NCBI GenBank assembly: GCA_977862235.1
Contig: OZ374561.1
Location: 1-64,000 of the forward strand
DNA from: Dudresnaya verticillata
Taxonomy: Eukaryota
Direction of reading: 5' to 3'
Length of the DNA: 64,000 bases
Shown here: in pieces, positions 6,236 through 58,784 of the stretch
Layout of the letters: each line of letters starts with the position of its first letter
Position numbering within the stretch: the first letter of the stretch is position 1
The notes under the pieces: generated by a model
The model's database searches: none
What the model was told of the DNA's origin: nothing
Seen by the model: only the letters and a program-made list of their open reading frames with translations
Program-made: the position numbers and the translations under genes

Positions 6236-6259
6236 TCAACCCTAATTCCAGCGAAACCA

Positions 6260-7330: not shown

Positions 7331-7689
7331 CGCTCTGTGCCTTCCACGCTCTGCCAGATGAGCGCCACATCATCCCGTTGACGCAACCGCCGCCGCCGCC
7401 GCCGCGCAAAAAAACGGCCCAAAAATTACAAATAATAAACGGTCATGACCGTTGCGTACCCTAAACCGGTGCCGCAGTGATCCGGTTCAGACACAATCTG
7501 ACCGTTCACTTAATCTGCCACCACACAGCCCACCACGCGTGCGACTGACCCCTCCTACTCCTCCTCCCTCACCACGCCTCTCTTACCCCATTAGCTCTAT
7601 ACCGCCTTGCTCCTCACCCGCCCGCACCAACCGCTCCCCTCTACCGCTACGCCTAAAGCGCTCGCTCACACCGTCATCGCTCTCCCGCC

Positions 7690-7960
7690 GGGCTGCGCGC
7701 TGTCTCTCGTTCTGTGCTGCCGTCGCGCTCCCGCTCGGTGCTGCGCTCGCCGCCGTCGCTCCTGGGCTGGGCTGTGCGCTGCTTTCTCGCTGTTGGCCTG
7801 TGCTGCGCTGTTGCATTGTGCTGCGCGCGACCCTTTTGTGCTCTACCGCCGTCGCTCCTGGGCCGTGCTGCGCGCTCTCTCTCGTTCTGTGCTGCCGTCG
7901 CGCTCCCGCTCGGTGCTGCGCTCGCCGCAGTCGCTCCTGGGCTGGGCTGTGCGCCGCTTC
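7690..7960. repeat. Direct duplication with a period of about 175 bp
   Basis: CTCTCGTTCTGTGCTGCCGTCGCGCTCCCGCTCGGTGCTGCGCTCGCCGC occurs near 7704 and near 7879. Confidence 0.85.
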
Positions 7961-8954
7961 CTCGATGTTGGGCTGTGCTACGCGCGCAAACCCTGCAGGA
8001 AAAGCGTCTAGGAAGGACAGCCTGTACTGAAGCATGCGGGCCATGCTTGTGAACTGCGATTTCGAGCTCCGGCCTCAATTGCAAGTTCGCAACCGAGGCC
8101 GGGCACGGTTTTCAGGGGCTATTTCTTTCGTCAAGCCACGTTTTGATTGCCAACAGGTATTATGGACCACATCTGTGATCCGGCCTGGATTGCAAACTTG
8201 CAATCGAGGCCGGATCGAAGATGTGGTCTACGCTTTTTTACTGCTCCTTTCGTCAAGCTACGTCTTGGTAACTTGACAAAAGGAAGCGCAATCGGCCTCG
8301 TCAAGCTACGTCTTGGTTGCAACTATGTCTTGGGGAACACATGCGCAACCCAGCCCAGCCCTATTTGCACACTTGCAATTGATGGCGCTTTTCGGTGCTG
8401 TTCCTGCCGTCAATGTCTTTTTCGATGGTAGCTACGCCTTAGAACACATCGACAATGACCCTGGCCTCGATTGCAAGTTTGCAACCGAGGCCGGACATTC
8501 CTTTCGTCTTGTTACACCTTGGTTGCCGCCCGACCTTACAGCACGTGCACACATCCAGGCCTAAGTTGCAAGCTTGCAACCTTAGCCGGACATCCTTTCT
8601 CGGCGTCGTGAGTCTCTGCCGTGATTGCAACTACCCGTCAGACCATATGTGCGCGATCCGGCGTCGATTGCAAACTTTCAATCGAAGCCGAGAACACTTT
8701 TCCGGTTTTGTTTCTTTCGTCTACCTCCGTTCTGATTGTAACTAACCCGTCAGAACGCAAGCGCAGACACACTTTCCCGGTGTCATTCCTTTCATCGACA
8801 CCAGTTTGAATTGCAGGTACGCGTTGGGGAACATGCAAGTGATCCGGCCTCGGTAGGAAACTTGCGATCTAAGCTGTGTATTTATTTCCGGTGCCGTTTG
8901 ACGTATCCGGCCACGATTTCAGATTTACAAACTAGGCCGTAGCTCTCTTCTGTT

Positions 8955-22400: not shown

Positions 22401-25400
22401 GCAGAAGCAGTAGAAGCACCGTGACAGCTTCCACAGTCGCGTCCCTGCGCGTCCCGCGGAAGCCGTCGCAACTCCACTACTCCTTCCGCAACGGATGCTT
22501 GCCTTGCCTCCACCTACTAACAGCTACCATCTGACCGCGGAAACAGTTGCCTATCTACATCTTTTTTCGCAACCATTAACTGTCATCTGCGCATTTGCTA
22601 ACACTCCCAGTCTGTCTGCGGAGCCCGTCGCAAACCTATAACTGCTTCCGCTGCATTCTCTCACTTCTCTAGCGCCTCGCGTCTTTCCGCAGATTCCGCA
22701 GCCGCCTCCACCATTGGTATCTTATACAACCTCCTTCTCCACCACCTCCTGCTCACCGTCCCGCGCTGCAACTTCGTTGCAGTTATTTACCCACTCCCGC
22801 GTCAAAAACTAACAATCATTCCTTTACTTCTATTCTCGCTTCACTTTACATATTCAAGGGACACACAGGTACGTGCTGGAGTCGCGTTCTTCACATTTCT
22901 ACAACCCAAAAACCTCCACAGCATAGCGACAAAACTCTAGAATTCCGGGGCACCATCCCGGTTTGTCTACGAGAAGTTCCTCGCAAAACTGTTGCAGTCC
23001 TGTGCATCTCCTGAATCTCTGCATTCCCGTATGCTTCTTCATCTCCTCCCTCCACCGCTGGTTGTTCCACATCATCAGGGCCAGTTGCATAGGCCTATAG
23101 AAGGGACACCGCTCCGAAGATCCATACTCGTTCTGCCCCCGCAGTGGACTACCGCTACCTACATGTGTCTTCTTCGAACCAAAGGTCTTCATCGAACATT
23201 CAGAACACCCGTTCGAAAAGAGCCCCCTCTTCGACTTCCAAGGCCGCATCCCGCACTGTGTGGCCCTGTGCCCTGACTTCATGCAGCGAAAGCACAGTCC
23301 AAAGCTACAGACTCTGCAATGCTCCTTCGACTTCACCGCTTCAAGTCCGGCTGCATCCCCGGGTCTCGAACGCCCCCAGCACGGCGCGCATACCGTTCCC
23401 AGCTTCATCGAGAGATCCCGTAATTCTTCCACCGCATCCATGGCTCCGCTCGCCGTCCGAACAGCAGCCACCACGCTGTCCTCCGGAGTACACTGTACGT
23501 CCAGACTCAACTCAGGTGCAGCTTGCCGCTGATTGCCCCCGCCCTCAGCTGGCAACAGCTCCCCACTCGAATCACTGTCGTCGGTATCTCCCGCCAGCTT
23601 CTCCAGGTGTATCTGCGTCGGACTCGCATACACACCCCCGGTCGAGGCCAAGAGTACCGACGAGGCCTCCTCCGGGACTGGAGCAGGCTTGGCACATACA
23701 TCGCACAACTGTACGGTCTCGTCTGGCAGTGTGGTCACACGCTCCGTACAGTTTCTCGGTACCTCCGGGCATCCCAGGTATTGCTCGATGGCCACACTTC
23801 GACACCGCCCCGTTTCTTCGGCCCATCTCTGGAATCGCTTAAGAGCCATCAGACCCTCCGTGTCCCTTACATTTGCACGGTCCCCAAACTCACGGTGGTA
23901 CAGTACACTCACAACCCCGCTCTTTCCATCCCTTCCAACCCGCCCGGCAACTTGGTACAGCTCCAACAGTGAACGGGTGCTCCCAACAATCACTGTCTTT
24001 GACACGTCAGGAGCATCAATTCCCGTCCCAAACCCTTCCGTAGCAATCATCACGCAAACGGTAAGCTCCCCCGCCCTCCCCCACTTCCACTGGGACACAC
24101 TCCGCCGCCGCGCAGTATCATTCATCCCACTGTTATACTTCGATATCACAACCCTCCGGGATGCTTTAAACTCTCTCCTCGCGCAAAGGGCTGCATGCAT
24201 ATCATCCGCTTCACCCTTAGTAAGTACACACACCAGAACCTTCCCCCCCGCGCGCTCGGAAAAGGCCAGGCGTACCCCTGCCATCACACTGTCATTAACA
24301 CACCCCATCACTTCTTCATCCTCCGCACTGGACAGCAGGTGCACACTGTACAGTACATTGTTCCGCCGCATGCTTCCACGAACAACCTCCGTGTCCCCAA
24401 CATTCGCACCACAGGCAGAAATTATCCTGTTCCCCATATGCACCGGGGCTGTGGCTGTCATCATTATCAGAGGGACACGCACGCGAGCCGGTCTCGCGTG
24501 ACGCATCCGTAACATGCACTCCCGATAGTGCGCGCTCAATAGGATAATGTGAGCCTCATCCACAACAACCCTCATCAACTTCTTGTTCTTGTGCAACACG
24601 CGCAGAGCAGCCTTGTATTTCGCCAAAGACACATGCTCTGGCGCGGCCAGGATTATACCTTTGCCGAATATTTCCATCTGTTCGTGATCATGGACGTCTT
24701 CGAAATCCAAAACGGGCAGCATGATGCTGTCGCACCGCTCTCTGATCTCCTCACGCAACGCACGAAGGGGGCATATGAAAACAGTCACCCCTTCCTCGCG
24801 CAATGCGGGCCCAAAAATAACCGCAGTCTTGCCAGCCCCCGTCCGAAGTACAATTAACGCGTCCCTCTCCCTCCTGACAACAACCCTCATTGCATCCTTC
24901 TGTTTCTCACTCTTGAACTCAGCCTCAGGATCTCCAACCGCTTCCTGGAGACACTCAACCAAACTCCATCGGGTCTCAGGTGACACGTCTTCATCAGACG
25001 ACGAATACTCTCCCCTCTCACTTTCCAGCCTCTCCTTCTCATTAATTTGACGAACGTCCTGTTCGTAAACATCCATTCTCTTTCCGATATCGGAAAGAAA
25101 CCCGACCAGCTTGCTTAAGAGCTCAGGGTCCCCCGCCTTCGGCTTCCCATCCCTCTCCTCACCCTCACTCCGTCGAAGACCATGAACGCCCTTCTCCGCA
25201 GCAGCAGCATTCACTGCGTTCACACCATCCCCCCCGCTCTGCCCCCGTCCCTCCCCTCTCTCTCCTTCCCACGCCACCCCTTCACTCACGCCCACGGTCA
25301 CCGCGTTCACATCCCTTGTCCCCGCCGCCGCACCCCGTTCTTCCGTTCTCTCTCCTTGCGACCCAGGCACTTCACTCGGGCCTGCTGCGCACCTCCCCCT

Positions 25401-40986: not shown

Positions 40987-41952
40987 TTACCCGCGTTGCG
41001 CGTCGTCGATGTTTGGCGGCAGGCGCGTGTGCTTCTGACGGTGATACCGCACAACGTGAGATCGCGGTAGACTGGACACTGGTTCCCAGGTATTCGCTGA
41101 AGCGGGGTATCCAAACCACTTGACGCGGTAGAGGATCTCGCCGTCTTCTGCGTGTTCGTGCGACTCAACCCGTTGGATAACGTACTCCGTCGCGCTTGTA
41201 GCGGTCGACGTGGGCTCCTGCCGTTCTAACGCCTGGGGCGGTTCAATGTGTTGCGTGATGGGCGTCTGCACCGGTTCTGCAAACCGTACTCGACGAGTCG
41301 ATCGCCTAAGGCGCTGGGTCGGTGCCCCGAGCGCTTGCGTAGCGGGTTGTGGTTCGTCGCTTTTGCGTACTGGTTCCTCGCTTCTACCGGCGTCCTTCGC
41401 GTTAGCGCGGTCTTCCTCATCGTCAGTCGATGCGCTCGAAGCGGGACCTACCTTGGTAGCCGGCGAAGCCAAGGTTGCGTGTCCCATTCGTGTACGGATG
41501 CCTGGACCCTCCTCCTCGTCGGAGACGGATTGCGATACACCGTCGTCGGGGTTAGCGGTGAAGGGCGAGAGCTCTGCAAACCCGCGACTTCGCGGCGTTG
41601 CATTCAGTCGCTCTTGCGAGTCGTCGGTGCTTCGCGGTGTCCCTTTGCCTCCTGCCGGGTCCGCCTGTGGCGTGTCTGGGGTTCCTGCTCCTTCGTCAGT
41701 TGACGTGGGGGCAGTGGGCCCCGGTACGTGAGGTGGTCCCGGTGGTTGCACGGTTGCGGGGGCGGTGTGCCCTGGTGGGGTTGGCGCCCATACCACGCGG
41801 TCCCGGGATAAACGTTCGCGTTCTCCGCGTCCCTTGTCGACGGTGACTGTCCCGTCGTCGACGTGAGTGACTCGATACGGTCCATCCGCCACAGGCGCGA
41901 GCTTGTGCGGTGCTCCCGCCCCGGGCGAAGTATTCCTTCCGCACGAATGCAA
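40987..41952 (-). CDS. Integrase C-terminal region with GPY/F motif and chromodomain (frameshifted from pol)
   Basis: KLAPVADGPYRV; EYVIQRVESHE...YRVKWFGYPASANTWEPVSSLP. Confidence 0.9.
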   Translation of the reverse strand: MHSCGRNTSPGAGAPHKLAPVADGPYRVTHVDDGTVTVDKGRGERERLSRDRVVWAPTPPGHTAPATVQPPGPPHVPGPTAPTSTDEGAGTPDTPQADPAGGKGTPRSTDDSQERLNATPRSRGFAELSPFTANPDDGVSQSVSDEEEGPGIRTRMGHATLASPATKVGPASSASTDDEEDRANAKDAGRSEEPVRKSDEPQPATQALGAPTQRLRRSTRRVRFAEPVQTPITQHIEPPQALERQEPTSTATSATEYVIQRVESHEHAEDGEILYRVKWFGYPASANTWEPVSSLPRSHVVRYHRQKHTRLPPNIDDAQRG

Positions 41953-44569
41953 AGTCGCCCACAGCGATGTTCTCCTTCGATTTCCGCAGACGAGTATCGA
42001 AGTTCCGTTTGTAACGCGCCTGCGTTTTCACGAGCGACGCTTTAGCGGTTCCCATCAATGCGGACAGCCAGGTTCGCCATTTGGTGTAGTACTGTCCGGC
42101 AGTGGGCACGCTTTCGAGCGACGGCTCGGCTTCCAGCGACAAGGGCCGCGGGGGCTTAGATAGAACCAGCTCGAATGGAGCGAGGTTGGTGGACGAGTGC
42201 AGTTGCGTATTGTACGCGAACGTCAGAGCATCGGTGAAAAAATCCCAGTCCCTGGGGTGGTCTGCTACGTAGTGACGCAGGGAGGCGAGGATGGTTCGAT
42301 TGAATCGTTCCACTTGGCCGTTACACTGCGGATAGTACATAGTAGTGAAGAGATTCTCCACCCCTAAGATACGGCAGACGTCCTGGAACAACTTGGCTAC
42401 AAATTGCGGCCCATTATCGGACAGTAGCTTCTTGGGTGGGCCATACACCAACACCCAGTGTCGAACAAACGCCTGAGCGATTTCCAATGCCGTAATCTTA
42501 CGTAAGGGAACCGTCCGGACCAGCTTCGAGAAGCGGTATACGATGACGAGTAGAAACTTATTCCCCCGCTTAGTGCGTATGAGCTCCCCGAGTATATCGA
42601 TGGGCACAAACTCGAGAGGCTCGGTTGCTGCGAACAGTTTCATCTCCTTCACGTTCTTTCGCATCAGTACCCGGTTCTTCGCGCAAGTAACGCAATTGCG
42701 GACGGTCGCGTAACAATCCACCGACATAGACGACCAATAATACTCACGTCGAAGCGTATGGTATAGCTTCCGTCCTCCGGGATGTCCTGCTAATTTAGCA
42801 TGATGTCGGAGATGGAGCAATCTAACGCGTAACGCGAATGGTACAACGACTTGGGGTCGGGCCTCGACGGTCCGAACCAATAGTCCTTGTTCGTGCGTTG
42901 CAAACGGTGGGTTGTCCCCGTCATCTAGACGTTTCCGGATCTCGGAACAGTACGGGTCACTGCTCTGAGCATGCACCAACTCTCCATGCGTCAATTGACG
43001 GAGGAGCACTTCGTCCGCCGGTGGCGCGTTTGTAACCAACATCTGGTCAAACTCCTCGAAGTCTCGTTCGGAGAAATCGACTTCGCCCTTGGCGTTTGAC
43101 GTATCGCTTTTTGCGTGAGCGTAGCCGTCTTCTGACGAGTGATCCTCGTCTTTGACGCAACTTCCGTGGTAACACGGGATATCATCGTCGATCGGTTCGA
43201 CCGTTTCGCCGTTCGTCTGTAGACGTGAGAGGGCATCTGCCTGAGTATTCAGGTATCCCTTTTTATACTTCACGACGAAGTCGAACTCAGAGAGGCGAAG
43301 GCGCCATCTCATTAAACGTCCCGAGGGGTCGCTGATTTCCATGAGCCACCTCAATGACGAATGATCCGTATGGACTACGAAGGACTCCATCTGAAGGTAC
43401 GGTCTCAACGTCGTGATGGACCAGACTACTGCTAGGCATTCCTTTTCGGATACCGAGTAGTTGCGCTCCGGAGCGGTTAACGAGCGTGACCAGAAGCCAA
43501 GCGGCTTCCGTTCGCCGTCAGGCTGCGTTTGAAAGAGTGCACAGCCAACTTGGTATTCGCTCGCGTCACAATCAACGGAGTACGGGAGTCCTTGCTGCGG
43601 CAACGCCAGGATGGGCGGGTGAGTCACCGCTTCGACAAGCGTGCGGAATGCCCGAGCTTGTTCCTCGGTGAACGGTTGTAACCGGAAGTCTTGCTCTTTC
43701 CTCAACAATTTGTTGAGGGGAGCGGCGACGTGCGCGTATCGCGATACAAACCGTCTGTAGACGTTGCACAATCCGAGAAAGCTCCGTAATTCCTTCTGGT
43801 CCCGCGGATGCTTGGCTTGGCGTAACGCGGCTGTGACCGTACGGTCTACTTCCAATCGTCCCGGACGTATCACATGGCCTAAATAGTTGACGGTCGGGGT
43901 GAAGAAGTCGCATTTGGTTAACTTCAATGTCAACCCGGCCCGAGGCAAGGTCGAAAGGATCTCGTCAACATGACGGAAGTGACTGTCAATATCGTTCGAG
44001 AAGATGATCACATCGTCAAGGTAGACGAGGCATGAGCGCCACTTGTAACCAGCAAGCAGGATATCGAGGGTCCGTTGAAACGTGGCCGGTGCGTTAGTAA
44101 GTCCGAAGGGCATACGCTTGTAGCGGAACAATCCGGCATGGCACTTGAACGCGGTCTTGTCGCGATCTCGCGGATTTATGGGCACCTGCCAGTAACCACT
44201 ATTGCAGTCTAGGGTGGTGAAGACGTTCGCTTCCCCTAGGCTGTCAATACATTCGTCGATTCGCGGGAGAGGGTACGTATCTCGTACCGTTACCATGTTC
44301 AAGCGACGGTAGTCAACGCAGAAGCGGAGTGTACCGTCCTTCTTGGGAGCAAAGACGACCGGCGACGCCCATGGCGATTGTGCGGGTTCGATAACCCCCT
44401 GACGCAACATGCGATCCACCTCCGCTTGAGCGAGTTGCCTTTGCTTTGGGCCAGCGCGGTAAGGCGGGGATGAAATCGGCCTGGAGCCGGGGAGCAAGTC
44501 AATATAGTGCTCCGTGGTTGCGATTTCTCCTAATGAACCGTCCCACATCGACGAGTACCTGCGCAGCAT
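41696..44569 (-). CDS. Gypsy pol: reverse transcriptase, RNase H, integrase
   Basis: LRFCVDYRRLN, MPFGLTNAPATFQ, YLDD, DCDASEY, HHCC Zn finger (H..LAGHPG..CVTC), SDNGPQF, NGQVERFNRT. Confidence 0.96.
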   Translation of the reverse strand: MLRRYSSMWDGSLGEIATTEHYIDLLPGSRPISSPPYRAGPKQRQLAQAEVDRMLRQGVIEPAQSPWASPVVFAPKKDGTLRFCVDYRRLNMVTVRDTYPLPRIDECIDSLGEANVFTTLDCNSGYWQVPINPRDRDKTAFKCHAGLFRYKRMPFGLTNAPATFQRTLDILLAGYKWRSCLVYLDDVIIFSNDIDSHFRHVDEILSTLPRAGLTLKLTKCDFFTPTVNYLGHVIRPGRLEVDRTVTAALRQAKHPRDQKELRSFLGLCNVYRRFVSRYAHVAAPLNKLLRKEQDFRLQPFTEEQARAFRTLVEAVTHPPILALPQQGLPYSVDCDASEYQVGCALFQTQPDGERKPLGFWSRSLTAPERNYSVSEKECLAVVWSITTLRPYLQMESFVVHTDHSSLRWLMEISDPSGRLMRWRLRLSEFDFVVKYKKGYLNTQADALSRLQTNGETVEPIDDDIPCYHGSCVKDEDHSSEDGYAHAKSDTSNAKGEVDFSERDFEEFDQMLVTNAPPADEVLLRQLTHGELVHAQSSDPYCSEIRKRLDDGDNPPFATHEQGLLVRTVEARPQVVVPFALRVRLLHLRHHAKLAGHPGGRKLYHTLRREYYWSSMSVDCYATVRNCVTCAKNRVLMRKNVKEMKLFAATEPLEFVPIDILGELIRTKRGNKFLLVIVYRFSKLVRTVPLRKITALEIAQAFVRHWVLVYGPPKKLLSDNGPQFVAKLFQDVCRILGVENLFTTMYYPQCNGQVERFNRTILASLRHYVADHPRDWDFFTDALTFAYNTQLHSSTNLAPFELVLSKPPRPLSLEAEPSLESVPTAGQYYTKWRTWLSALMGTAKASLVKTQARYKRNFDTRLRKSKENIAVGDFAFVRKEYFARGGSTAQARACGGWTVSSHSRRRRDSHRRQGTRRTRTFIPGPRGMGANPTRAHRPRNRATTGTTSRTGAHCPHVN

Positions 44570-44590
44570 CTCCTTCAGCCGTCCTTGATG

Positions 44591-46135
44591 TTAGGCTGAG
44601 AGATGACTCAGATCCAACTCGTCCACTGACGGAGGTTTAGCTACAGTTGCTTCGATCGACTTAGCGAATGTATCCGGCTGCGCCGTTACCCCATCGTTCG
44701 TTTGAAAACGGAAATCTTGATTTGCTTCCTCCTCCGTTGCCTGCTCCTCGGTGATACCTAGGACATCGGCCAGATTTATGTGACTGGGGAACACTGCTGT
44801 GGGATGTGGCAACGCGGTAGCGACGACTTGTCCTTTGACGAGCGCTTGCGGGCGCGGGGAGAAGTTTGCGACGAGAATCCGGAACACTCTCAGCGGCTCT
44901 ACTTGAGCGACTCCGTTAGTAGCGGCCAAAGCTTGCCGATCATATAACGTTCCAAACGGTTGGATCGTAATGACCCCTGGTCGCTCGGTCGTTACCGAGA
45001 TCCACTTTTGCGCCTGCGGCGGGATGATCGTTCGTTCCGCAACGCGTATCTTGGGCGACGTTCGCCCTTCGGCCGTGCCGTACTCTTGTTCCGTTGGAAA
45101 CGGGGGGTACGACGGGGGCCGGTGCAGCGGGCGGCGCGTTATAGGGACACGGGTCCCGTCGTCCAGCTCAATCTCGCGACTCCGCGGATAAACCGCTTCG
45201 ACAAAGCGGTCGCAAACGTCGCAACCGAGTATAACCGGCGCAGCGAGCCGTTCACAGACGATCAACTCCAACTTGACGACCCTTCGTCCGAGACGTACGA
45301 CTAAGATGATAGTGCCCCGGGTCTGAATCGCCTTGTTGTTAGCGTCTGATATGACGGGGAGACTCTTGGATACGATCCGTGATCGCGCTTCTAGTGGAAT
45401 ATCGTCAATTCGGATGAAATTCGGACCAGCCCCCGTGTCGAGGACAGTGAGTTTACGTGCCAAGGTACCTACAGATACGTCTAGATCAGCGTATACTTTG
45501 TAGTTCCTTTTGGCCATTACGAACAACTGTCCCCGGGCTTGTGGGGGCTGGTACCTACGCCAGGGGCGCTTCAAGGACGTCTGTGACGAGTCTACCCGCC
45601 CATCGGCGTATTTGTTAACTAAGTTCGGGCCCTCCTCCCGTGTCAGCACCCGAGGCGGAAGCCTCTCTGCTTGGTGCGACACCCCAGTGTCAGGAGTTGG
45701 TACCCTCATTACTTTTTCGCCTGCGGCGGTTGTGGCGGCGCTGTGTAGCGATTGACCACTGTCGGATGACGTTCTGCTGCATGCGGCATAGGTCCGCCTC
45801 GTGGTGACGGCGGTCGCGCTGCACGGCGTGCTGCTTCGCGCGCGTTCCTTGTACCGAGTGTACGCATCGGCGGGGACCCCCGCCTTCTCGGCGTCTGTTA
45901 AGCCTTCGTAGTTGGCGATCGCTTTCATATACTCGCTCATGCGGAGGAAGCAGTCCGGTGCGATGTGGCCACGGGCATAACACTGATGACAGATCAACTG
46001 TCTGCGAGCGTCTTGACGGAGCGGACCCCTGTCTTCCCAACCTGGCCTCACCCGATGGAAGTGGGGGGCATACTCCGAGTACGGGACGCGTGGCGCGGGC
46101 ACGACGGAACGCCCAAAGACGAGTGTAGGATCCAT
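44591..46135 (-). CDS. Gypsy gag C-terminus (CCHC knuckle) and aspartic protease; separated from pol by one in-frame TAA
   Basis: CHQCYARGHIAPDC; VLDTGAGPNFI; the 21-nt gap to pol keeps the frame. Confidence 0.9.
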   Translation of the reverse strand: MDPTLVFGRSVVPAPRVPYSEYAPHFHRVRPGWEDRGPLRQDARRQLICHQCYARGHIAPDCFLRMSEYMKAIANYEGLTDAEKAGVPADAYTRYKERARSSTPCSATAVTTRRTYAACSRTSSDSGQSLHSAATTAAGEKVMRVPTPDTGVSHQAERLPPRVLTREEGPNLVNKYADGRVDSSQTSLKRPWRRYQPPQARGQLFVMAKRNYKVYADLDVSVGTLARKLTVLDTGAGPNFIRIDDIPLEARSRIVSKSLPVISDANNKAIQTRGTIILVVRLGRRVVKLELIVCERLAAPVILGCDVCDRFVEAVYPRSREIELDDGTRVPITRRPLHRPPSYPPFPTEQEYGTAEGRTSPKIRVAERTIIPPQAQKWISVTTERPGVITIQPFGTLYDRQALAATNGVAQVEPLRVFRILVANFSPRPQALVKGQVVATALPHPTAVFPSHINLADVLGITEEQATEEEANQDFRFQTNDGVTAQPDTFAKSIEATVAKPPSVDELDLSHLSA

Positions 46136-46882
46136 TGCCTCTGTGTCCTCATCTTCGACGTAGCTAACACTAATTTCGCCGGCTACAGAATTTCCAAAAC
46201 AGAACAGAATTTTTTGAGGGTCCTTGAATCCAGGCGTTCGATAGCGCGTTGGAAAGGGGCGCTACCCTGAGAACAGTGGTGCAAACAGATCGGAGCAAAC
46301 GCTAATAGTTTCGGAGTTATGCGCTCCGGTATATGGCCCCCCCGGGGTCGAAAGTTCCCGAAACTTGTGATTTTTCCGAAAAGTTCCAATTAAAAATTCT
46401 CCAGAAATTGATTCTGGCCCGTCCCGCCGCCCGCGCCCCCGCCCCCCGACCGCACACCGCATTCTGGCGACTTCCCGCCGCATTCCGACGCGCTCGGACT
46501 TGGCTTCCCACCGCATTCCGACGTGCGCTCGGCCACCTCCCCACGTCCGACAGCCACTCCCACCATCACCCTTCCTGGTGCTGCTACTGGCCCACGCATT
46601 CCGCATTCTGGCGCGTGCGCACACGCTCTGCTTCTGCCTTGCGCGTAATGAGGCGCGCTTCCCCACCCCCTCCCAGACCCGTAGTGCCGCTCCCCGCCCC
46701 AGTCCGGCCTGTGACCGCACTCTGTCTCACGCTCCCTGCCGTTCACCGACACCTCGCCGTCACCCTTCCCCACGCTCCTGCGCACCGCGCCCTGCCGCAT
46801 TCTGACACGTCCACATCAAGTTGCCGCATTCAGGCGCACGGTCAGCCCCTCGCAGCAGTCCCCCGACACGCCTCCTTCACCC

Positions 46883-47045
46883 CTACCCCGCTCCCGTGCG
46901 GCACGGCCACCCGCATTCTGACCCGTCCTCACAACTGGGCCCACTACCCGCCCGACCTGGTACCACTACCAGGTAGCTCAGCCGCTTGCGCACCCGCGGT
47001 TCGGACTTAACTTGTGGCGTAGACGGGCGCTACAGGCGTCGAATG
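46883..47045 (+). repeat. Left arm of a ~160-bp inverted repeat (TIR); it may extend further left toward about 46165
   Basis: CTACCCCGCTCCCGTGCGGCACGGCCACCCGCATTCTGACCCG...CTACAGGCGTCGA is the reverse complement of 58626-58784 with few mismatches. Confidence 0.92.
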
Positions 47046-47112
47046 GCCTTGCATTTCTCGTGTGCTGCATCAACCTGAGAGTAGAATTTACTGGTTGTAG
47101 CTGTTTCTCGTA

Positions 47113-50088
47113 TCAAGAGCCGGCATACCTAACTAACAACGGCGATTCTCTGATTCTCTTCTGGACGAGCTGCGGTAGACGTCTCTTCGTAAGAGCTTCG
47201 AATTCGACCATTACAGTCGCGACGCCGACAGTACCAGTCCATGGCTGCTTAGTCGCTGAGTATATGGATGCCTTGCACTTTCCGTCCCAAGCACCCTTTC
47301 CGTCATACGCCTCGTACCATCTTATATACAGCTCAGTAGCCTTTCCCGTAGCGTCCTGCACAACATCTATAATCTGTCCAACCCAAAATGGGCATCGTGC
47401 GGTGGCGTTCTCCCTCACAACGACAAAGAAGTAGTTCTTCGTGTACTGCAGGTCTGAAGAGGCGGTCACAGTCTCCTCCTCACCGTCATCCCCTTCCGGT
47501 ACGTACTCCAGCGCCGCTCTTCCGCTGTACTTTCCCCTTGTCTCAAATATGCGTCCCATATCCCAGTGAAACGTTTCCAGCCTATCTCTGTACACGTGGT
47601 CACGCAATTCCTGCAGCTCCCTCATCTTTCCCGTGTCATTCACAGGTGTCTCTTCAGAACGAAACCTGTCTTTGACTTCCTTCAAATCTGGCGGCGATTT
47701 GACCACTGTTGCTGGAGTCTTGCCAAGGCCAGGAGGGGATAGTACGAACCCCTTATGCTCTCCTCCTGTCTGCAACGGAACCCAGTCATCCGCGCATGTC
47801 ATTCTAAATTGAAAGCCTGTCACAAAAGCTGCAACAGATTCTGCCTCTTCCGTCGCAGCTGGACCCACACGGTGGAATCTGAAATAGCGATAGGTCGTGA
47901 ATGCCTCAACATTACCAATGCATCCTTCCTGTCGACACAGGCCTGAGAAATTCGCAATTTGAAGCATGCGACTGACAACTGGTTCTGGACTGTACGACTG
48001 CCGAAGCTCTTCCATCAATTCAGTCATTGTGACTGCGTCCCGAACTTTAAGCCGGCGTGCCGTGCACGAAAAGGCCTGATCTATATCTGTGTGAGTGTGC
48101 CCGACGGGCAGGAAAGACACGAAGACCTCTTGGAACACACCCCATGCAACGAGACTCTCCAGGTATGAGAACAAAAAGATATTTTTGTTCTCTCTCGAAC
48201 AGTTGTCTACTTGTAGAAATAAAGTCCCTTGTAGCTCTCCTCTGGACTGTTTGTCCGAAAGCGTTCTGTGCAACGCCTCGATAATGTGGTTCGCGCCGGT
48301 CTCGAACTCACCGGTCATTGTGTACAAGTGCAGACGCTTCTCAGCCCTGTGTTCAAGCACCCCAATAAGTTTCGCTTTCATGGCATGCCCAATGCTGGCT
48401 TTGGACGACACCACAAAATGTGGAAGTCCAAATGCGGACTGATCAGCACCATCCACTATGAGGGAGCAATACTCCTGCGGCAATAGTATCGCCTTCTCAT
48501 ATTTTTCTGATATTCACGTCTCTCTGCCTGTATGAATTTCAAGTGAATGTTGCGCCGCTCATGCAGGTGTTCAGTGCCTGCTCCAGAGGTCCCTGCCTGA
48601 GCAAGTCGCTCGCGAATGAGTTCGCATTCACTGCACTTTGCAAATCGGTGTGTCTTTCGCACCTTAATGCGGGAGCAGCTGTGTTTCCATACAAAGTAAA
48701 AGTAACTCTGACACGGAATTTCCCTGTTTCTGTACAGCCTGGTGTGGTCCAATTTGAACATGTCATACACAACTGATTTCTGAAAGTAGGGGAGGTGCGA
48801 CTCCCCATTATCGGGCATTGGTTCAGCAGTGCTGTCTGCAAGACGTTCAAGGAAGCAAATGATACTATCCTGCTGATGGGATGAGGTATCACGCCTCGCA
48901 TTGTTTGGGAGCTGCAGCTTCTGGGACTGCCTCGTGCCTTTTACAGAGGTCTGTAAGTCACGGGAGAATCCAAAGGCCTGCTCCAAAAAGTTGTAGCAGA
49001 CAGGCTGACGGTTGAAAAGTATTTCATCTTGGTCGTGTCCAACAGATTGCGAAGATACGTTCGCCTTGCTTCTACGTTCATTCCGGCAATTCTGCGCGCC
49101 TCCGCCTTTAAGTGCACTTGCTCTACACTTTGGAAGCATTTGTTCCCGATGCAGCATCTCATTGACTGCGTGTTTGCGCGTTCCAAGTCTTGGAACAGGT
49201 GCCTACGTCTCTTCTGAAGACTTCCTCTCCCACTGAATGTCTGCTGCTTTCTCTTCCTGTAAGTATATTTTCGCTTCGTCCTGACCTGCACCTTATGAAA
49301 AGGGTCATATGCGTCGTCATCACTTTCCGACACGTGTCGTACGGCGTCCGCATCATCATGGTTGGCCTCCCTCAAATGCTCTCGCGGTTCTCTCAATTCC
49401 TCACTGCTCGGAGCATTGCCAGGCGGGGGTGTTGTTCGAATTGACCGCGCTGCGGCATCCGCTTGCGGCCCCGCACTTTGTTGGAGGGGTGATGCTGGCC
49501 TTGTCGTGTCAACTGGTGTCATCTGCTGGGGCGATGCGGTAGGGGCCACCGCTGCGGCATTGTGTTCTGCAGTTGACGTAGGGGGGCAATTGCTCAGTAA
49601 ATTCTGCGACGAACTATGCCCTGTCGTGGAGAGTACAACCGTCTCTGGCACAACGGTGCGATTTCTCGATTGCCGAGCTCCTGAATGTAGTTCACATCCC
49701 ATGCATGAAAACCCCCACCCATCTCCCCAAGTGTGTGCGGAACGGAGTCCGTTGTCTTGTACTTGTATTTGTACTGAAGTTTCTCATACGGTTGCATGAT
49801 TTGTGCTCGGTAAACCACAACCAGCTTCTCCCCTTTTTTCTGACTGGGAGACAATTTGTGGCCATGCAGGGTGACACAATACCTGCCAGACTGGTCCGCG
49901 TCCTCTTTTGTCCCCGGTCTCTTGACAATAGCAGTGCCGACCATTTCCCTGTCATACAGAAGAGCAACATGCCCTTCGTCGCGCGCGTTGCCTCCTCCTT
50001 TTGCTTCATTTTCTCGCTCAGCGCAATCCGTACTTGACGGGCTCATTTCCATCTCGTTCAAACTGTCCTTCCGCGATGACATCTGCAC
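47113..50088 (-). pseudogene. DDE-type transposase (Sola-like / GHTHxDID family), about 990 codons in four frameshifted pieces
   Basis: ORFs 49594..50088, 48941..49702, 48456..49157 and 47113..48483 tile one gene. Motifs: FAKCSEC..H, LIVDGADQ, LQVDNCSRENKN, FLPVGHTHTDIDQAFS. The family assignment is from motif recall only. Confidence 0.75.
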
Positions 50089-51019
50089 ACAGCTTGTGAG
50101 ACTGCCACTCGTTCTGTCTTCCCTTCACGCTCTAAGCAGAACGCCCGCTTTGCAGTCTATTAAGGCACCTGCCTGACCTGGCCGGGAGGCGCAGCCCTTC
50201 GCAGCAAAACGCTTGCGCATTAAATACCCTCTGTGATACCGCGGCGCGCCGCCTGTTGCCTGCTCTTGAGGCTTCACACCCGTGGAGCGGCACGAGTGGC
50301 TGCACGAGGTGCATCTGGGTTATTCTGCAACCCAGATTCTGTTTGTGATCAGATTCTGGTTCTGCACTTGGCCAATTACATTTCAGGACAAGTCTCCACG
50401 TGCATGCGGAGCCACACAAGCTGCAGCTTCTGGGAGGCGGACACATACAGCTGACGGTCTCCGCAGCTTCGGAGAGGCGCTCTCTCAGCTGCTTTGCGAT
50501 TCGATATGCGCGGTCATATGCTTCCCTGTAGCCCTCATTGCACGCCTTTGCTGCATACGCGCCCAACCCGTTGCCTCCTTCCTTGAAATAGTCTTGCGGT
50601 CCAATAACAGGGGCGCCCCATGCACATGCACTGCAGGAATGTTCAACGATTGGAAATCAGGGACTCAACGCTTCAGCCCCCAGTCTCCTGCTCCGGCTGC
50701 ACCAACCCCATCTACCTCAACTCTGCGTCGTTTCCCAGCACAGCTCGAGTATTATTTCGCGTTGTCAGCCAAGGCACCGATTTCATCCACATCTTCGCCC
50801 TGCGTTCCAGACCCATCAACAACGCGCGTTGCTCCCCTTCCCTGTAACCACTTGTCAGCACCAGCCGCCCTCAGCGCTGACTCAATATGCATCTCCTTCA
50901 TCCAAAAGCCGAGGACCCTGTCCAACCCACCAACAATGGGCTCTTCCTCATTTCCAGAGTACATGAGTACAGAAAGCCCGTGCTTCCCGAATCACCCGGC
51001 TCTGCCCACTCGGTGGCGG

Positions 51020-51450
51020 CAAAGTGCAACATCTCCCCGAGCGATGCCTACGGCCGCCGATGGATGCCTCCGGTTATTCCTGGCAATGCAGCACTGACAT
51101 TTGAGATTGAGGTTGCAGACTTCAAGGGCGGCGGATGCGAAGATGTCAAGAAAGTCACAGAGTTCAATCCTGAGGTGGCCAGGACTCCAACTGAAATTGC
51201 CACAGAATATGATGCCGGACTTGAAACGCAAGAGGAGCGAAGGAAGAACATGTCCTTGCTAGAACGCTTTTACCTCATGAGCCCATTTGCCAGCCGAACG
51301 GGAGAACGCCCGCCTTGGTGGATCAATCCGATTATTACTTTCGTTGCAATCGCGGTGTTCTGTGTACTTGACTTCTATCCCGTTGTTGTTGCAGGTGGCA
51401 TTCATGTGGGCTATGTTGATCAGCCTGTGTATGTGACCATCTTTAAATAG
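51020..51450 (+). pseudogene. C-terminal fragment of an FKBP-type peptidyl-prolyl isomerase with a membrane tail
   Basis: AKCNISPSDAYGRRWMPPVIPGNAALTFEIEVADF matches the FKBP C-terminal signature (AYGxxGxPxxIPxNxxLxFEVEL). The N-terminal half is missing; a hydrophobic segment follows PPWWINP. Confidence 0.8.
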
Positions 51451-51799
51451 CCTTGCTTTTTCACTGCTTTACTCCATGTAAACACTGTGCTAACTTCGGG
51501 TTGACAGAGAATGAAAATGCGTTTGGGCAAGGTAATGGTAACAATCGGGTGAGAAAGAAATCACCCGAGAAAACCCAGCGCCTAAATCACTCAGTGCGAG
51601 GTCATGGGTTGATAACTCTCGCGCGACCTCGAGAAGCATTTTGCGACCGAATGCTTGTCTCCTGGGAGCATTCCAGCCTTCTGCCTCCTCTGTGAATCTT
51701 TCAAATCTGAGACGCTGCCCGGTCGCACACCCCGTGTCACCACGTATTACGCTTTCATCGAAGTAAGCGTTTAGAATTTGTTTTCGGGACTGGGAATGT

Positions 51800-52950
51800 G
51801 TTCTGTAGACTGAAATATCATTCTCGAAACGTCCTGGGCGGAGACGTGCATCATCCAGAAGGTCTAGGGGTCGCGTCTTCCCCGCAAGAAAACAGGCTCA
51901 TCCCAAGAATGGTTGTTGGTGCCGTCTATTTCGGTGAGAAATGTTCCCAGAATGCGATTGAATGCTTCAGAAGCGGATTCCTCATCAGTGCAACCTACAG
52001 ATGCACGACCACGACTCGGAGAGAGAAAATCGACATTCTCAATGACGACGACTGTTTAGAGTATGGCCCTCGCTGTAGCGAACAGTTCTGATAGCCGTAT
52101 CTCACCATCGCCGACAATGCTGCTTGTAATAGATGTGCCTTCAACGCATGGATTGTTTATGCTCCCATGGGTAACTGTCTGCGACGCCAGTCGCGCGATT
52201 GCGTACTTTCCAGATCCTGTTGCACCATAACAGATTAAACACTTCCATATCCCTAGCGTTTGCAATGCTTCCTGGCTGCTATCAGTCGAAGGGGGCCACT
52301 CCGAGCCCGAAGCACTGTTGTCAGACATTCCTGAAATTGTTTGATTGGCGATTCCAAGCCATGAAAGGCCTTGATAGACTCAGGATCAAAACTTTCGTCG
52401 GCTGGGGTTCCTTTCACGACCGACCGCAAGGCTGCCTTTGTCATTTTCAAGGAGTCCCAAAACTACGGAGCAGAAAGAAGGTCATGCGGTTCGAACGAGG
52501 AATTCCTCGCTTAAGAATTGATCGTTGGTCTTCCCCAGGCTTGTTCCAGTGTAGAGAACAAACTTGTCATGTCGCCATGCATGAACCCAGGTCTAACGAC
52601 GGCAACACCCTGTTGATTACGTGTAGTAGTAATAAAGACTACAGGGATATGGCTTTCGTCATGCAATGCGGAAAGCTCTTCACGGAGTGCAGCAAAGAAT
52701 TAGTGCGCTTAAGCGAAAGTCACGGGATGACAGAAGTTTGGCTGGTGCCCATACGTCGAGCACATCAATAAGGATTGCAACTGGGAAACAAGCAGTACTC
52801 AGCATAGACTCATTACCAAACATATCGTTCTCAAGACCAACAGCTTCCGAGAAAGGTTCCGAAATAGCACCTCCTATGAACCCAGCATCATCAACTGCTA
52901 CAACTCTTGGACACGAGCACACTATCCAAACGCCGGCGAAACGTGCCCCT
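51800..52950 (-). pseudogene. Decayed AAA+ ATPase (CDC48/AFG2/PEX-like double-AAA) fragment
   Basis: Manual read-through: LICYGATGSGKYAIAR (Walker A), TSITSSIVGDGEIRLSELFATARAIL*TVVVIENVDFLSPSR (Walker B region), NRILGTFLTEIDG. The upstream ILIDVLDVWAP resembles a first-domain Walker B. Confidence 0.8.
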
Positions 52951-54375
52951 TGTATAGCAAGTGTACTCTTCCTTGATGCGGACGTCTTTCATGCGGCAGT
53001 CCAGAGCGCTTGAATGGCTAGAGGTGACCTGCGTACCGCTTGTAGAATGCCATTGAGTTCTGGACACGATAACGGAATGATGAATATGAATAGCAAGCGA
53101 GGGCTATGGGAGCATCTGAGAGACGTGCGGTTGACTAACACGACGATCACGGCTCGCATTTAAACGTTTTCGGTTCGGGAAGGGGTTGGGAACAATAATA
53201 CCATGATGACCATGATGACAGGCTGAATGATGGCAGGCTGAATTATGGTTTTCAAGGCAAGCGAGAATTTTCGTGTCAGAAGCGAACGTAGGACGGTAAG
53301 CAGGCAGGCAAACACAACGGCGGTATTACGCAGCGGAGAGGAAGGGGAGTGGAGGAGGATACCGTGAGTGATGGATTCGCGGAGCGGGAAAATCGCGGCA
53401 AGGGTAAGGGCGTTTGTGAGGCAGTGTGTTGTGGAAGGCGTATTTGTGTCCGCATTCTGGGCAATCATCTCGTGAGCTCGCAGCGCCGAGGCCAGATAGA
53501 TTGTGGAGTTTGCGGGCTCTCAGGACCTGTTCCCTGATACTGATATTGCACTTTGGGCTCCTGCGTTGCCGTGAAGCGCAATATCTGTTCTCATAGCAAT
53601 GTGACTTGGCCGCATTCAGAAGCTGTAAAGGTGTTGACGGCGGCCCAATGGAAAGACCCTTTTACAAGCTTATTCAATATCATTGGACAGAAAATCTATA
53701 CAGGTTTTTCAGCGCGCATTTTGCCACATCAAATGAACAGCTATTTGGCCCGGTTCTCTCGCCCCACCTGTTCCCTGATACTGATATTGCACCCACAGGT
53801 GTTGACACCTCCCACCCCCGAGAACCTGTTCCTCGTAAATTGACCGCCGCGGCCCCCGCTGGCACGCCGCTGACAACTGTGCGCCAGTACTCACCGAAAC
53901 CGTGTGTGGCATGCTATTTTACTCGCAGTATCAGCACCTGGCCAGGCCGGCCTCAACTTCAAAGCCCGGTCAAGTCGGCTGGGACAGCGAGCAGCATGCC
54001 CTAATTGACTTTGTTACATCTCGCCGTGCAGGTCCGGTGAAACCTGCATTCTACCAATTCCAACTGTACGGCCTGTGCTAAGAATAGTTCTGATGGAGAC
54101 TGCCCAAACCCGGTGAACAATCCACGTGACCTCCCGTGCCATCTCAGAATTTGCGGTACATCCATGTCGTACTCCTGCCGTCCAGTGTGTCGAAAGCCCG
54201 TATGGTGTCAGTCGAAAACGGCACCCTGCAAACATGAGCCGGGGACGTAAAGAATTTCTTGCGGAAGGTTTTCTGAACAGAATCTGGACAACTCATCGGA
54301 CATGCAGTACCCCTTTCCGTACTCTTTCAAGGAGAGCGGTTTTCACGTGCACAGTGAGTCTTTCTCTCGCACACC

Positions 54376-57300
54376 ATGTCGAAGCGCAAGAAGCGGAGCA
54401 GGGGGTCAAGTGAGCCGTTGAGGAAGGAGGAGATGGCACAGGCACTGTTTGGAGATGTCATGGAGGGGTCTAACAACATTCGAATAGACCCCAGGTCCTG
54501 TGTTCCGATGACTGATATAAGGGACATCTCGAGATCCGGTGTTGAGAGGCTCAAGAAGATTTTCAGGGTTGGTGGGACGAGGAGCGCTAACTACAACAAC
54601 GGGTACATTGCCGGTTCCGATGCGCCCATACTGGTTCGCCTAACAGGTCCCTTCAGGAGTTTCATTTTTGAGTTTCTCCGAGCTAAACGGAATGTGGATG
54701 GGACAGAGTACACAGAGAAACAGGTGAAAGAAGAGGCCTCCAGTCGGTCGGAGTGGTTCGGAGTTGTTGATGGCATGCATCGACTTATCGCCATTATGGA
54801 GCTAATCGATGAAGACCGGGAGACATGGAAGGGGTTTGCTTTGACTGCCACTGTGCTTAAAGGGGGGCACAACATCCAGATTCTGAAGCAACTGGCTCGT
54901 CATCAGAACAGAAAGCACGACTCCAGCTTTTTTTTAGAAACCACGTTTTACGATCAGATATGCGGTCTTAGGAAAGAGGCAGACCGTCTCGAATCCAGTA
55001 ATGGGAAGACTCCGACTGCGACGGCAGTTGCCGAAGCATATGATGGATGCAGTCACCTATCGGAAAACACTATCAAACAGACAGCGGCAACCGTTCTTCG
55101 TCTTGACCGTCGCGTTATAGATGCAATTGGGAAGATAATGAAGGAGGAGGTCCCTGAACTAGCAACTATGCAACTGTTGACTGCTTCCGGAAAGGCCATA
55201 GACGCAAATGTCGCGATGCAGAATCTGGATTGCAGAGTATACAGACGCTTCATTCACGTCAGTTCCATCAAGTCTTCCAAGGCCTTTATGAATGCAGGCA
55301 GCTCTGACAACGGCATTACTGTTCAAATAGCTACCCTGTACAGGCTCCGAGAGGTGTCAAGGACACACAATTTCAAACCTGTTTCGGCCAAACACACGCA
55401 AGAGCAATTCTTGAAAGCTTCAGCCGCCCTTTCCGAGACTCGGAAGTTTGAAGCGATGAGGGAGAGGACAGAATGGCCTTCAGGCATGAGTACATTAAGA
55501 GAAAACCTGTTACACACTACGAAGCTGGACGTCGAGGTCATCATAAATCGAGGTAATTACTGTACACTGTTGAAAACAATAGTTGAGATGTACAGAGAGT
55601 GTTGTCCGGAAGAGGCCCCAGTGAAGTTGCAGAAGTACAAAGATCTGCAAACTGTGATGGATTCGACAGAAGGCAGACGTGATGATGCTGTCATGACCCG
55701 CCCGGGTTCCGATGAATGTGGAGCAAAAGGTTCTGACGGTCAACAGAATTTGGACTGCACGTTGTCACCGCAGGTGGACGCTACCGGAATCTCTAGCGAC
55801 GAAGAGGGTTTAGACTTAGTAACATCAACCAATTCGAAAAGGGAAGAAGGTCGCGAACCAGCAGAATCTGGACAGGCACCCGTCCAGAACGTAGACCCTA
55901 AAGCTGCATGTGCAGCCAAAAACCTTTCTGTACCGGAAAAGAGTCCCACAGACCCCACTGTATCAACTGTTTCATCAAAGCAGTCTGTTCGCCTCAACAT
56001 GGGTACTAAGGCTGTGCCGGTGGAGGACGGATTGCTTTCTGTTCCAATAGATTATCTTGCGGAAATGAAACTGACATGCTTTCAGATGACATGGCAGAGC
56101 TACGATAGTACCGTAAGGAAGGAAGGTGACAAACGATTCGATTTAATCCTCACTGATCCACCATACGGTACACCGAAATCGCAGTCTAAGTCGGGGAGGT
56201 CATTCGATAATTACCTCAGCGAGGAAGACATTAAGAAGATAGTTGAGTTCTCGAGGCGCGTACTTGTAGCAGGGGGTGGTTGTTTGTTTTCATGTCATTC
56301 CTGAACTTCAGTGTATTCCACGATGCTCTGAAGAAGGCACAATTAATGTGCCCATCATACCCATTCATATTCTCCAAAGACCCCAAGACCATGCAGGAAC
56401 ATCGGGGGAGCGATATGCCCAGAACTGTGTGGAAATAGCCGTCATGGAGCGTGCCCCAGGTCAGCATGGCGGAGGGTTCTTGCTCGACCTCAGGAGCGAG
56501 TATCACTGCATCCCCTCCCCAGAAAAGCGGAAATTCGCGTGCATGTCCTCTCTACCAACACCGAAACACAAGTTGCTACGCCCAGGCACCAAGTACCCAG
56601 TTCTGGTCGAGGAGAAGTCTCCCGAAGTACTTGTGGAGATAATGTCAACATTCTGTCCGGATGGCGGGTCAGTTCTGGATATGCACAGCGGAACCATGAC
56701 GACTGGGATTGCAGCTCTCAGAATAGATCGTCGGTGTACACTAATCGAATCACAGGTCGAAACATTCAAGCTGGGGGCTGAACGTTTGCGTAGGCTTGCC
56801 ACGGAAGCATATGAAATGAAGACAGGTCGTAAACGTTTGGAATCAAGTGCTCATGACGAACTGAATGGTATCGGTGAGGCAGCAAGAGGTAGTGTTGTCA
56901 AAACAGATTCTGCTCCACCAACAAACCATTCCGTAAAGAGGAAGGGACCTGAAATGTCCCATCTGACGACACCGTCCGAGCACGTATTGGATGACCCCGA
57001 AGAGAGTATCGAGAAGCACGGCAGGAGTGAAGAAAAAGTTGTAGGAAGTGTGGAGAAAAGTGAAAAGTGCAGGAGAAGGAAAAAACCTGAACCTTGTGCA
57101 ATGCCCAAGGCCGGAGACAGAGTCACGCTTCTTGCAGATGATAAGGAAGTGGGGGAGGCCGTGTTGCATCCTGAAAAGACTCCAGGAGGGAACTGGAATG
57201 AACGCTTGCACGGCCACGATCTGTCAGAATCTGCCAAACCAGGGGAGCATCTTGTGGTCGTCTACAGTTTGAAGATCATGGCGGAGTATGAGCTAAGTTC

Positions 57301-57406
57301 GTATCCGTATATATTTAAGGGAGTAAAGGACCCTCCTGCCAATCTCAAGGGCCTAAACGGCTTGTTGTTCTCGTGGGACTTACACAACATGAAGAAGATT
57401 GGGTAG
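54376..57406 (+). pseudogene. ParB/Srx-like domain fused to a beta-class DNA amino-methyltransferase (N6-adenine or N4-cytosine) and a C-terminal transposase-associated domain; two frameshifts
   Basis: GVVDGMHRL; FDLILTDPPYG (motif IV, 56155); RRVLVAGG then +1 frame WLFVFMSF...; EKSPEVLVEIMSTFCPDGGSVLDMHSGTMTTGIAALRIDRRCTLIE (motif X-I). The frameshifts lie at or near G-runs around 56275 and 56405. Confidence 0.85.
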
Positions 57407-57914
57407 GAATTATAGTCAGTACAGTACTATTGTCATAGGCCGAATTGAACATTTCTCGAGCATCCGTATTCTGAACATGTCTTTGCGTCTTGCTTCCGCC
57501 ATGGTCCATGAATTCGACGTCGTTCAGGCACCATTTACTCGAATAACGCCAGTGCTTCCACATGCCGTACTATGAACGCGGGGGTTATATTTGGTCCACC
57601 AAACAGAATCTGTCACGGAAGGCTGTCGCGAGTGTGGCACATGTACCGTACTGCTGCAGCTGCTGGCAACGTTGCGGCATATTGGCAGTAAGTGATTGAT
57701 CCACTACGTACCGGAGTGCGCCCAGGGCTGTCTCCAACGCATATGAAATGGAAACCCGTCAGCTCGTGGAAAGATGGACCATGTATTGCCCAGGCACGCA
57801 GTGATCCTGTCGCAGGTGAAGGCCTCGGCCATTTCGGAAAGAGAGCTGAGATGAAACGAAGTGTTCGTTCACCACCATAATCTGCTGTGACCAGAATACC
57901 GCTGTATTGAGACC

Positions 57915-58337
57915 ATGGATGACTTGATTCTGGATGTGGAAAAGCTGTACAACGCCGTTAAACGTCGGATGGAGGAAGATCTTAATCGTGAGGCACGAAA
58001 ATGGACGCACCAAAGCCCTAGCAGTGACGACGACATTCTGGACAACCACAATGACCTGGATCGTGCCCAAATGGCTTGGGAATCATCACAGCAATTTTAC
58101 GCAGACAAGACGATGATGGAGCATTCCCACCATCAGAAAGCTTTGGACAAGCTGTACAGGTTGTTGCTGAACAAAATCTTTCTCGTGGGAAGGGGCAAGT
58201 ACGTGCACGGTGCAGCCCATGCTATAGACTTCGCGATCGTCGAAACGCTGCACAGGGGCGGAGAGAACGCGTATCAACTGGGTCGCTACACACGTCTGCT
58301 TTGCACAAATTCTACATGCCCAATAGCCGCGCAATGA
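57915..58337 (+). other. Possible coding fragment of unknown identity inside the transposon
   Basis: 140-aa ORF with protein-like composition and no recognised motif. Confidence 0.3.
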
Positions 58338-58625
58338 AACCGGAGGTGAGGATGTGCATCATGAGGAGCCTGAACAATGAACTGTCTAGTTGTGAAGGGC
58401 TGTATATGCGGAAGCATGATAGCAGCGATTGCTAACGTTAGAGATAGTAAAGTGGTGGCCTTCTCCCATGAGCACAGCAATGCGCTTCATTCCATTTGGC
58501 GGCCTACAATCGGGGATGTGCCCCATTGAAGTATGGCATGGTCCTCAGCTGCGGTGCAATAAACGCGGCGCAGACAACAGAATGCAATGGGGTCAGGCTG
58601 GCATTGTGCAGAACCGCAAGGGAAA

Positions 58626-58784
58626 TCGACGCCTGTAGCGTCAGTCTACGCCACAATTTAAGTCCGAACCGCGGGTGCGCAAGTGGCTTAGCTACCTGGT
58701 AGTGTACCAGGTCGGACGGGTAGTGGGCCCAGTTGTGAGGACGGGTCAGAATGCGGGTGGCCGTGCCGCACGGGAGCGGGGTAG
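58626..58784 (-). repeat. Right arm of the inverted repeat, abutting a gypsy LTR
   Basis: Reverse complement of 46883-47045; the similarity stops exactly at the TGTAGTGCA LTR terminus at 58785. Confidence 0.92.

Follow-up and report, generated by a model that had tools for sequence, protein, structure and literature searches.

A predicted SH3-like domain shared by the transposase and the methyltransferase of a transposon-like element in Dudresnaya verticillata

Genomic setting of the element

The stretch of DNA analysed, here called the window, consists of the first 64,000 nucleotides of contig OZ374561.1 (forward strand, GenBank assembly GCA_977862235.1) of Dudresnaya verticillata. It opens with a telomere array (1–1274) of the 8-base unit AAACCCCT, in which 115 of the 154 units have the commonest length and the other 39 differ, nearly all of them in run length, a scatter resembling what noisy long reads would give. 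The array, together with two helicase genes and a Ty3-type retrotransposon harbouring a chromodomain, identifies the window as subtelomeric eukaryotic DNA. The helicase genes (8958–14867 and 22902–29098, minus strand), which we take to be of the RecQ-like, telomere-linked type, are large, contain zinc-finger-like, DEAD and Helicase_C domains and are each split over two frames. Adjoining the telomere is a 1454-codon open frame (1874–6235, minus strand) without a Pfam match, and a palindromic repeat of ~35 nt is found in many copies within 1580–16250. The retrotransposon (40987–46261, minus strand) contains RT, RNase H and integrase domains besides the chromodomain; no pair of LTRs was found for it and its 5' part breaks off at ~46261, where sequence resembling the end of a DNA transposon starts.

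A pair of inverted repeats was identified in the window, enclosing two divergent genes, one for a DUF7869 transposase (minus strand) and one for a protein with a ParB-like and an amino-methyltransferase part (plus strand). The features of the element are:

46457–46920, plus strand: left subterminal array, eight copies of a 10-nt motif (at most one mismatch)
46883–47058, plus strand: left inverted repeat of 176 nt, matching its right counterpart at 93% identity; candidate terminal or subterminal inverted repeat
47113–50082, minus strand: gene for a DUF7869 (Sola-like) DDE-type transposase, ~990 codons in four frames, breaks near 49670, 49026 and 48505
47866–48387, minus strand: DUF7869 core of the transposase (PF25273, E 3.9e-47)
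49672–49974, minus strand: copy A of the shared domain, situated N-terminally in the transposase and predicted to fold as an SH3-like barrel (pLDDT 93.5)
50881–51450, plus strand: fragment resembling the C-terminus of an FKBP prolyl isomerase, between the two genes (FKBP_C E 0.002, below the curated cut-off)
54376–57406, plus strand: gene for a ParB-like and beta-class amino-methyltransferase protein, ~1010 codons in three frames, breaks near 56276 and 56407; divergent from the transposase gene
54763–54783, plus strand: VVDGMHR motif of the ParB-like N-terminal domain
56155–56166, plus strand: DPPY catalytic motif, intact
57119–57403, plus strand: copy B of the shared domain, situated C-terminally in the methyltransferase and predicted to fold as an SH3-like barrel (pLDDT 90.1)
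58610–58784, minus strand: right inverted repeat, 93% identical to the left

The 10-nt motif, which was chosen after the repeats had been seen, matched the window 14 times where 5.1 matches are expected, and its array on the left side suggests that the left end of the element is to be sought beyond the inverted repeat. By eye, no target-site duplication could be seen at the inverted repeats of this single genomic copy. The right end was also considered as CACTA-like, but the left end does not fit such a reading. The 4-kb spacer between the genes (50200–54300) contains the FKBP-like fragment, likely a captured host sequence, and a perfect direct repeat of 27 nt at 53525 and 53766. Two copies of the subterminal motif are also located in the spacer, at 53450 and 53610, and are candidate binding sites for the ParB-like domain. 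A frame of 148 codons (57891–58337, plus strand) that matches nothing in Pfam and has Cys and His residues close to its end is situated between the methyltransferase gene and the right repeat.

The transposase and methyltransferase genes

The transposase belongs to PF25273, scoring 160.7 bits against a Pfam cut-off of 26, while its Sola label is our own assumption, drawn from a layout in common with Sola1-1_Ec32 together with its motifs. At the C-terminal end of the protein (47130–47500, minus strand) a second small beta-rich domain with F-W-x-G and W-Y motifs, presumably PWWP/Tudor-like, is kept in all 14 aligned rows.

Copy A is located in an ORF (49594–50124, with a stop at 49594) that is not in the frame of the remaining transposase, so that the proposal that the domain starts the transposase could not be read from the window alone. 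Among 107 long relatives of the transposase, P0102 and P0103 match best; they are 56% identical to it in the core and carry the domain N-terminally, in frame and within a single ORF, and P0103 (978 aa) is colinear with the window from the domain through all four frames. Together these relatives show that the domain does start the transposase, a conclusion reached through them and not from the out-of-frame copy A itself.

In the methyltransferase gene the DPPY motif precedes the SAM-binding motif, as in the beta class (PF01555), the cut-off of which was passed by six out of six whole relatives while the two halves of the window gene, each scored alone, fall below it. The best solved relatives of the catalytic part are DpnA (E 6.5e-14) and CcrM (E 1.5e-7), which share the beta-class order of motifs but are bacterial and have neither the ParB-like head nor the shared tail. 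The ParB label of the N-terminal domain is an assumption of ours made from a DGxHR-type motif that is kept across the relatives and from weak matches to DndB (E ~0.1) in the relatives P0002 and P0008; the ParBc profile gave no match, and P0088 matched a profile of the methyltransferase head with an E-value of 0.003. A subclade of ParB-methyltransferases (L009:338–3319, minus strand, P0013, P0042 and P0064) lacks DPPY although the ORFs are whole, and some of its members carry the shared domain and some do not. Nothing folded follows copy B before the stop codon at 57404–57406, confirming that the domain ends the methyltransferase.

The two genes contain five frame breaks, three in the transposase and two in the methyltransferase. 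Four of them could be placed by alignment, each being one base short and positioned at or within ~10 bases of a homopolymer run of four or five bases, runs that together with 3-base margins make up ~12% of both genes. The fifth, directly after copy A, was not placed by alignment but the frames demand the same one-base shortfall. The seven frame segments, ~1990 codons in all, have no internal stop. The five frameshifts are likely read errors and the element is probably intact.

The shared domain

Both domain peptides are present where the original prediction had placed them, and their similarity is significant. BLASTP aligned copy A with copy B over 39 identities in 102 positions (E 2e-17), and the Smith-Waterman score of 152 is far above those of 5000 shuffles, which averaged 25 and reached 53 at most. 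Profiles built separately from the transposase-class and the methyltransferase-class copies aligned with an hhalign probability of 99.6. Identity between the two window copies is only 38%, each of them scores better with other copies than with its partner (ranks 5 and 10 of 91), and a six-frame profile search of the 64-kb window revealed no third copy.

AlphaFold2 gave the same strand order for both copies, and the top structure matches were SH3, KOW, Tudor, LSm, PWWP and chromo barrels with Z-scores of 3.2–3.9. SH3-like barrels made up most of the 50 VIA matches listed (best Z 3.9, ~48 residues aligned, rmsd 2.5), while with Foldseek neither the PDB nor the viral models yielded a match at E up to 0.001 (E above 0.1), and no single structure match was significant. 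The two copies represent one domain of ~90 residues, predicted to fold as an SH3-like barrel. Among 90 copies a His (93%), a Tyr-Pro-Tyr (76–88%), a Pro (92%) and a Trp-Asp (96–97%) are conserved together with a near-invariant Leu, and these residues are kept despite an identity of 30–40%.

It had also been suggested that the domain recalls the En/Spm Tnp1-like domain. The PF03017 model matched none of seven domain stretches or 53 short members at E up to 10, a threshold to be read with the HMMER filters, which drop most matches above ~0.1. By eye the order of motifs in the domain profile agrees with that in the one PF03017 segment compared, from soybean Tgmt*, as printed in the source (PMC2613891). 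The resemblance stands at the level of motif order and the Pfam model lends it no support in any of the 60 members or fragments; the domain is not classed as a member of PF03017, and a remote kinship with that family appears fairly probable.

Distribution of the domain

A search of 1.84 billion representative proteins with a profile made from copies A and B resulted in 88 matches, two of which (P0089 and P0090) were judged false because they contain unrelated Pfam domains and were dropped. The 86 matches kept are 20 methyltransferases with the domain at the C-terminus, nine transposases and four ParB-like proteins with the domain at the N-terminus, and 53 unassigned fragments. Two of the four ParB-like carriers, P0085 and P0088, also contain motifs that we take to be of the 2OG-oxygenase type. 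No NCBIfam family was found for either copy and the ESM Atlas gave nothing for the domain beyond unnamed bacterial clusters. With copy B as the query, a word-based search of proteins 663–2000 aa long returned nothing, which is a miss of sensitivity since other searches found such proteins.

Fairer counts of carriers come from searches run without use of the domain. Six of eight full-length ParB-methyltransferases carry it at the C-terminus (13 matches in all, five of them N-terminal halves), and 17 of the 107 long transposase relatives carry it at the N-terminus. Absence from other members of either gene family had been named as evidence against the original prediction, and such absence was found in part, in the 90 transposases lacking the domain. 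Missing domains may partly be artefacts of gene calling in which upstream exons have been missed.

When 106 transposase rows were placed in a tree (P0204 and P0205 excluded), every carrier fell inside one clade of 30 rows (support 84), requiring at least five gains or losses. In the methyltransferase tree the carriers occur all over, and P0013 and L009, which are whole but have no copy of the domain, take nested positions and no longer possess DPPY. This pattern suggests an old presence of the domain on the methyltransferase and its addition to a single lineage of transposases. From the trees we infer that the methyltransferase of this clade had it ancestrally, that at least one copying event brought it to the transposase and that several losses occurred. 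The tree of the domain itself is too weak to give the direction or number of transfers, and both AU tests on domain trees are uninformative because the free search missed better trees.

Methyltransferase loci were found in neither the metagenome nor the viral contig scans and the transposase scan of viral contigs was also empty. A scan of prokaryote genomes gave two short contigs, which are likely contaminants.

Linkage of the two genes in other loci

A related methyltransferase is linked to a DUF7869 transposase in five (L001, L009, L014, L017 and L021) of 78 metagenome transposase loci, most of the 78 being too short to show a second gene. The gene pair is divergent in L001, L009 and L014, as in the window, and convergent in L017 and L021, where SET domains are present; in L017 a single ORF holds the methyltransferase and, after it, the SET domain. 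The latter two are distant DUF7869 elements in which a methylase-SET gene (PAG2-like; L017:4516–5970 and L021:4404–6101, both minus strand) faces the transposase and a palindrome separates the ends of the two genes. A SET label for L014 was dropped, Pfam giving no support for it. None of the 78 loci contains the shared domain at E up to 0.01, and in L009 both genes are whole and neither carries it.

The nearest relatives of the window genes point the same way. In the two gene trees the nearest methyltransferase is P0001 and the nearest transposase is P0103, each from a contig of 8748 bases; P0002 and P0107 likewise have a contig size in common, 7926 bases, while 0.13 matches of equal contig size are expected by chance. 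Judged by these equal sizes, P0001/P0103 and P0002/P0107 are probably gene pairs on the same contigs. In each pair the domain is found on one partner only; P0001 may be cut short by a frameshift.

The occurrence of the methyltransferase beside DUF7869 transposases in other loci makes it a native gene of this element type, on the evidence of gene linkage, and by the same evidence the link between the genes does not need the domain. The original prediction had taken the shared domain as proof that the methyltransferase is a native component and not cargo; its conclusion is supported by the linked loci and the probable pairs, while the domain cannot serve as the proof, given L009 and the one-sided pairs.

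Possible function of the shared domain

The explanation that we rate highest, though as an even call, is that the domain is an optional targeting tag that brings each of its carriers separately to a common site, most likely the chromatin of the element. The ParB-like domain would bind the repeats of the element, the DPPY enzyme would write N6-methyladenine (or N4-methylcytosine) on it, and the shared barrel would help the writer and the transposase to meet the same DNA. The one-sided pairs and the existence of a third class of carriers, the ParB-like proteins, fit independent targeting, and the SET domain occupying the slot of the shared domain in L017 shows a chromatin-directed module holding that position in another lineage. 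Against the tag stands that no solved relative was found (E above 0.001, Z under 4), and the fold does not favour targeting because SH3-like barrels also serve plain protein-protein docking. A predicted complex of copies A and B, run without alignments, scored 0.01 and was counted neither for nor against.

A shared dimerisation or targeting module had been proposed, and of this a common domain in both gene families is confirmed. Compulsory pairing is not supported, given L009, the one-sided pairs, the many transposases without the domain and the third carrier class; an obligate heterodimer of transposase and methyltransferase is unlikely because L009 lacks the domain on either gene and the two probable pairs are one-sided. 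A looser form of docking, in which the domain binds itself, oligomerises each protein and joins transposase and methyltransferase where both carry copies, is a tentative second choice. Transposases and beta-class methyltransferases often act as oligomers, both copies are situated at free termini behind long low-complexity linkers, and self-association would be useful even with one partner lacking the domain. Binding of an accessory protein by the N-terminus of the transposase is reported for maize MURA-MURB (PMC12973397). The same whole but domain-free genes of L009, the one-sided pairs and the 90 transposases lacking the domain also weigh against this docking, as do the low identity of the window copies and their ranks as matches to each other.

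It is distinctly unlikely that a rearrangement inside the element left the transposase with a copy that is no more than a tolerated passenger, the methyltransferase copy alone being of importance. Such an origin would agree with the patchy occurrence and repeated changes on the transposase tree, with the different N-terminus that P0104, P0106 and P0107 have in common, and with the finding that the window-type transposase copies, after each other, score best against methyltransferase copies, but the invariant residues are kept in transposase copies from proteins only 40–56% identical in the core, 16 transposase copies form a clade of their own with a common insertion (support 92), and copy A is predicted with high confidence. 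Very improbable is that copy A is a separate small ORF or the decayed remnant of a methyltransferase, outside the transposase: its own frame with a stop, and the junction not placed by alignment, would allow this, but the closest transposases hold the domain in one ORF, P0103 aligns across the junction, and the frame offset equals the one-base shortfall of the four other breaks. Carrying the targeting tag further, the domain would be the algal counterpart of the plant TNP1/En/Spm domain, a common address or docking tag that gathers transposase, adenine methyltransferase writer and a possible ParB/2OG-oxygenase eraser on element DNA across unrelated transposon superfamilies, an extension that we consider unlikely.

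Comparison with known systems

Sola1-1_Ec32 of Ectocarpus measures 21.5 kb, has AACCG at its ends and a repeat of 282 bp, and duplicates 4 bp at its target (PMC12477816). Like the window element it is described as giant and moving by cut-and-paste, and it has long, imperfect inverted repeats together with a gene for a ParB-like and N4/N6 amino-methyltransferase protein of ~1000–1100 aa on the strand opposite to the transposase; its ends, repeat and duplication, compared by description, were not found in the window element, and the part of the text covering it mentions no domain common to the two proteins (PMC12477816). In red seaweeds, Bostrychia among them, the Plavaka accessory genes PAG2 and PAG3 encode N6-methylase and ParB/2OG-oxygenase proteins (bioRxiv 10.1101/2025.02.11.637652). 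These genes are transposon-borne, like the methylase of the window, and move between element families, and by motif P0085 and P0088 have a PAG3-like layout that starts with the shared domain. They differ in being methylase-SET and ParB-oxygenase fusions accompanied by a Plavaka/EnSpm transposase, whereas the window has a ParB-like-methylase and DUF7869, and no common terminal domain is described in the part of that preprint covered here (bioRxiv 10.1101/2025.02.11.637652).

The soybean Tgmt* segment of PF03017 and the shared domain agree by eye in a hydrophobic strand, a V-x-x-G/A strand, a hydrophobic-His-Gly/Asn motif, a further hydrophobic strand, a Pro-containing motif, a short helix and an aromatic-x-Trp, but the segment has no Tyr-Pro-Tyr or Trp-Asp as such and differs in host element and lineage (PMC2613891). 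PF03017 of plant CACTA elements is, like the shared domain, restricted to transposons and located beside an enzyme domain. Eukaryotic adenine methyltransferases in general are covered by Iyer et al. (PMC4738411). DUF7869 is not mentioned in the literature searched. For the enzyme domain next to the soybean segment we assume, by its motifs, a Ulp1-like protease.

No description of a domain common to these transposon proteins was found in the literature searched. The element type is already known, from Ectocarpus Sola1-1 and the Bostrychia Plavaka accessory genes, while for the shared module no earlier description was found in the parts of these sources covered.

The patchy distribution limits the claim to a refinement in one lineage and not the basis of the partnership between transposase and methylase. 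A well-folded domain of ~95 residues on transposase, methylase and oxygenase-like proteins offers a concrete handle on how the DNA-modifying accessory enzymes of giant algal transposons find their own element, and it is small enough to be expressed and tested for binding. If the domain is related to PF03017, it would also provide an initial clue to the function of a plant CACTA domain.
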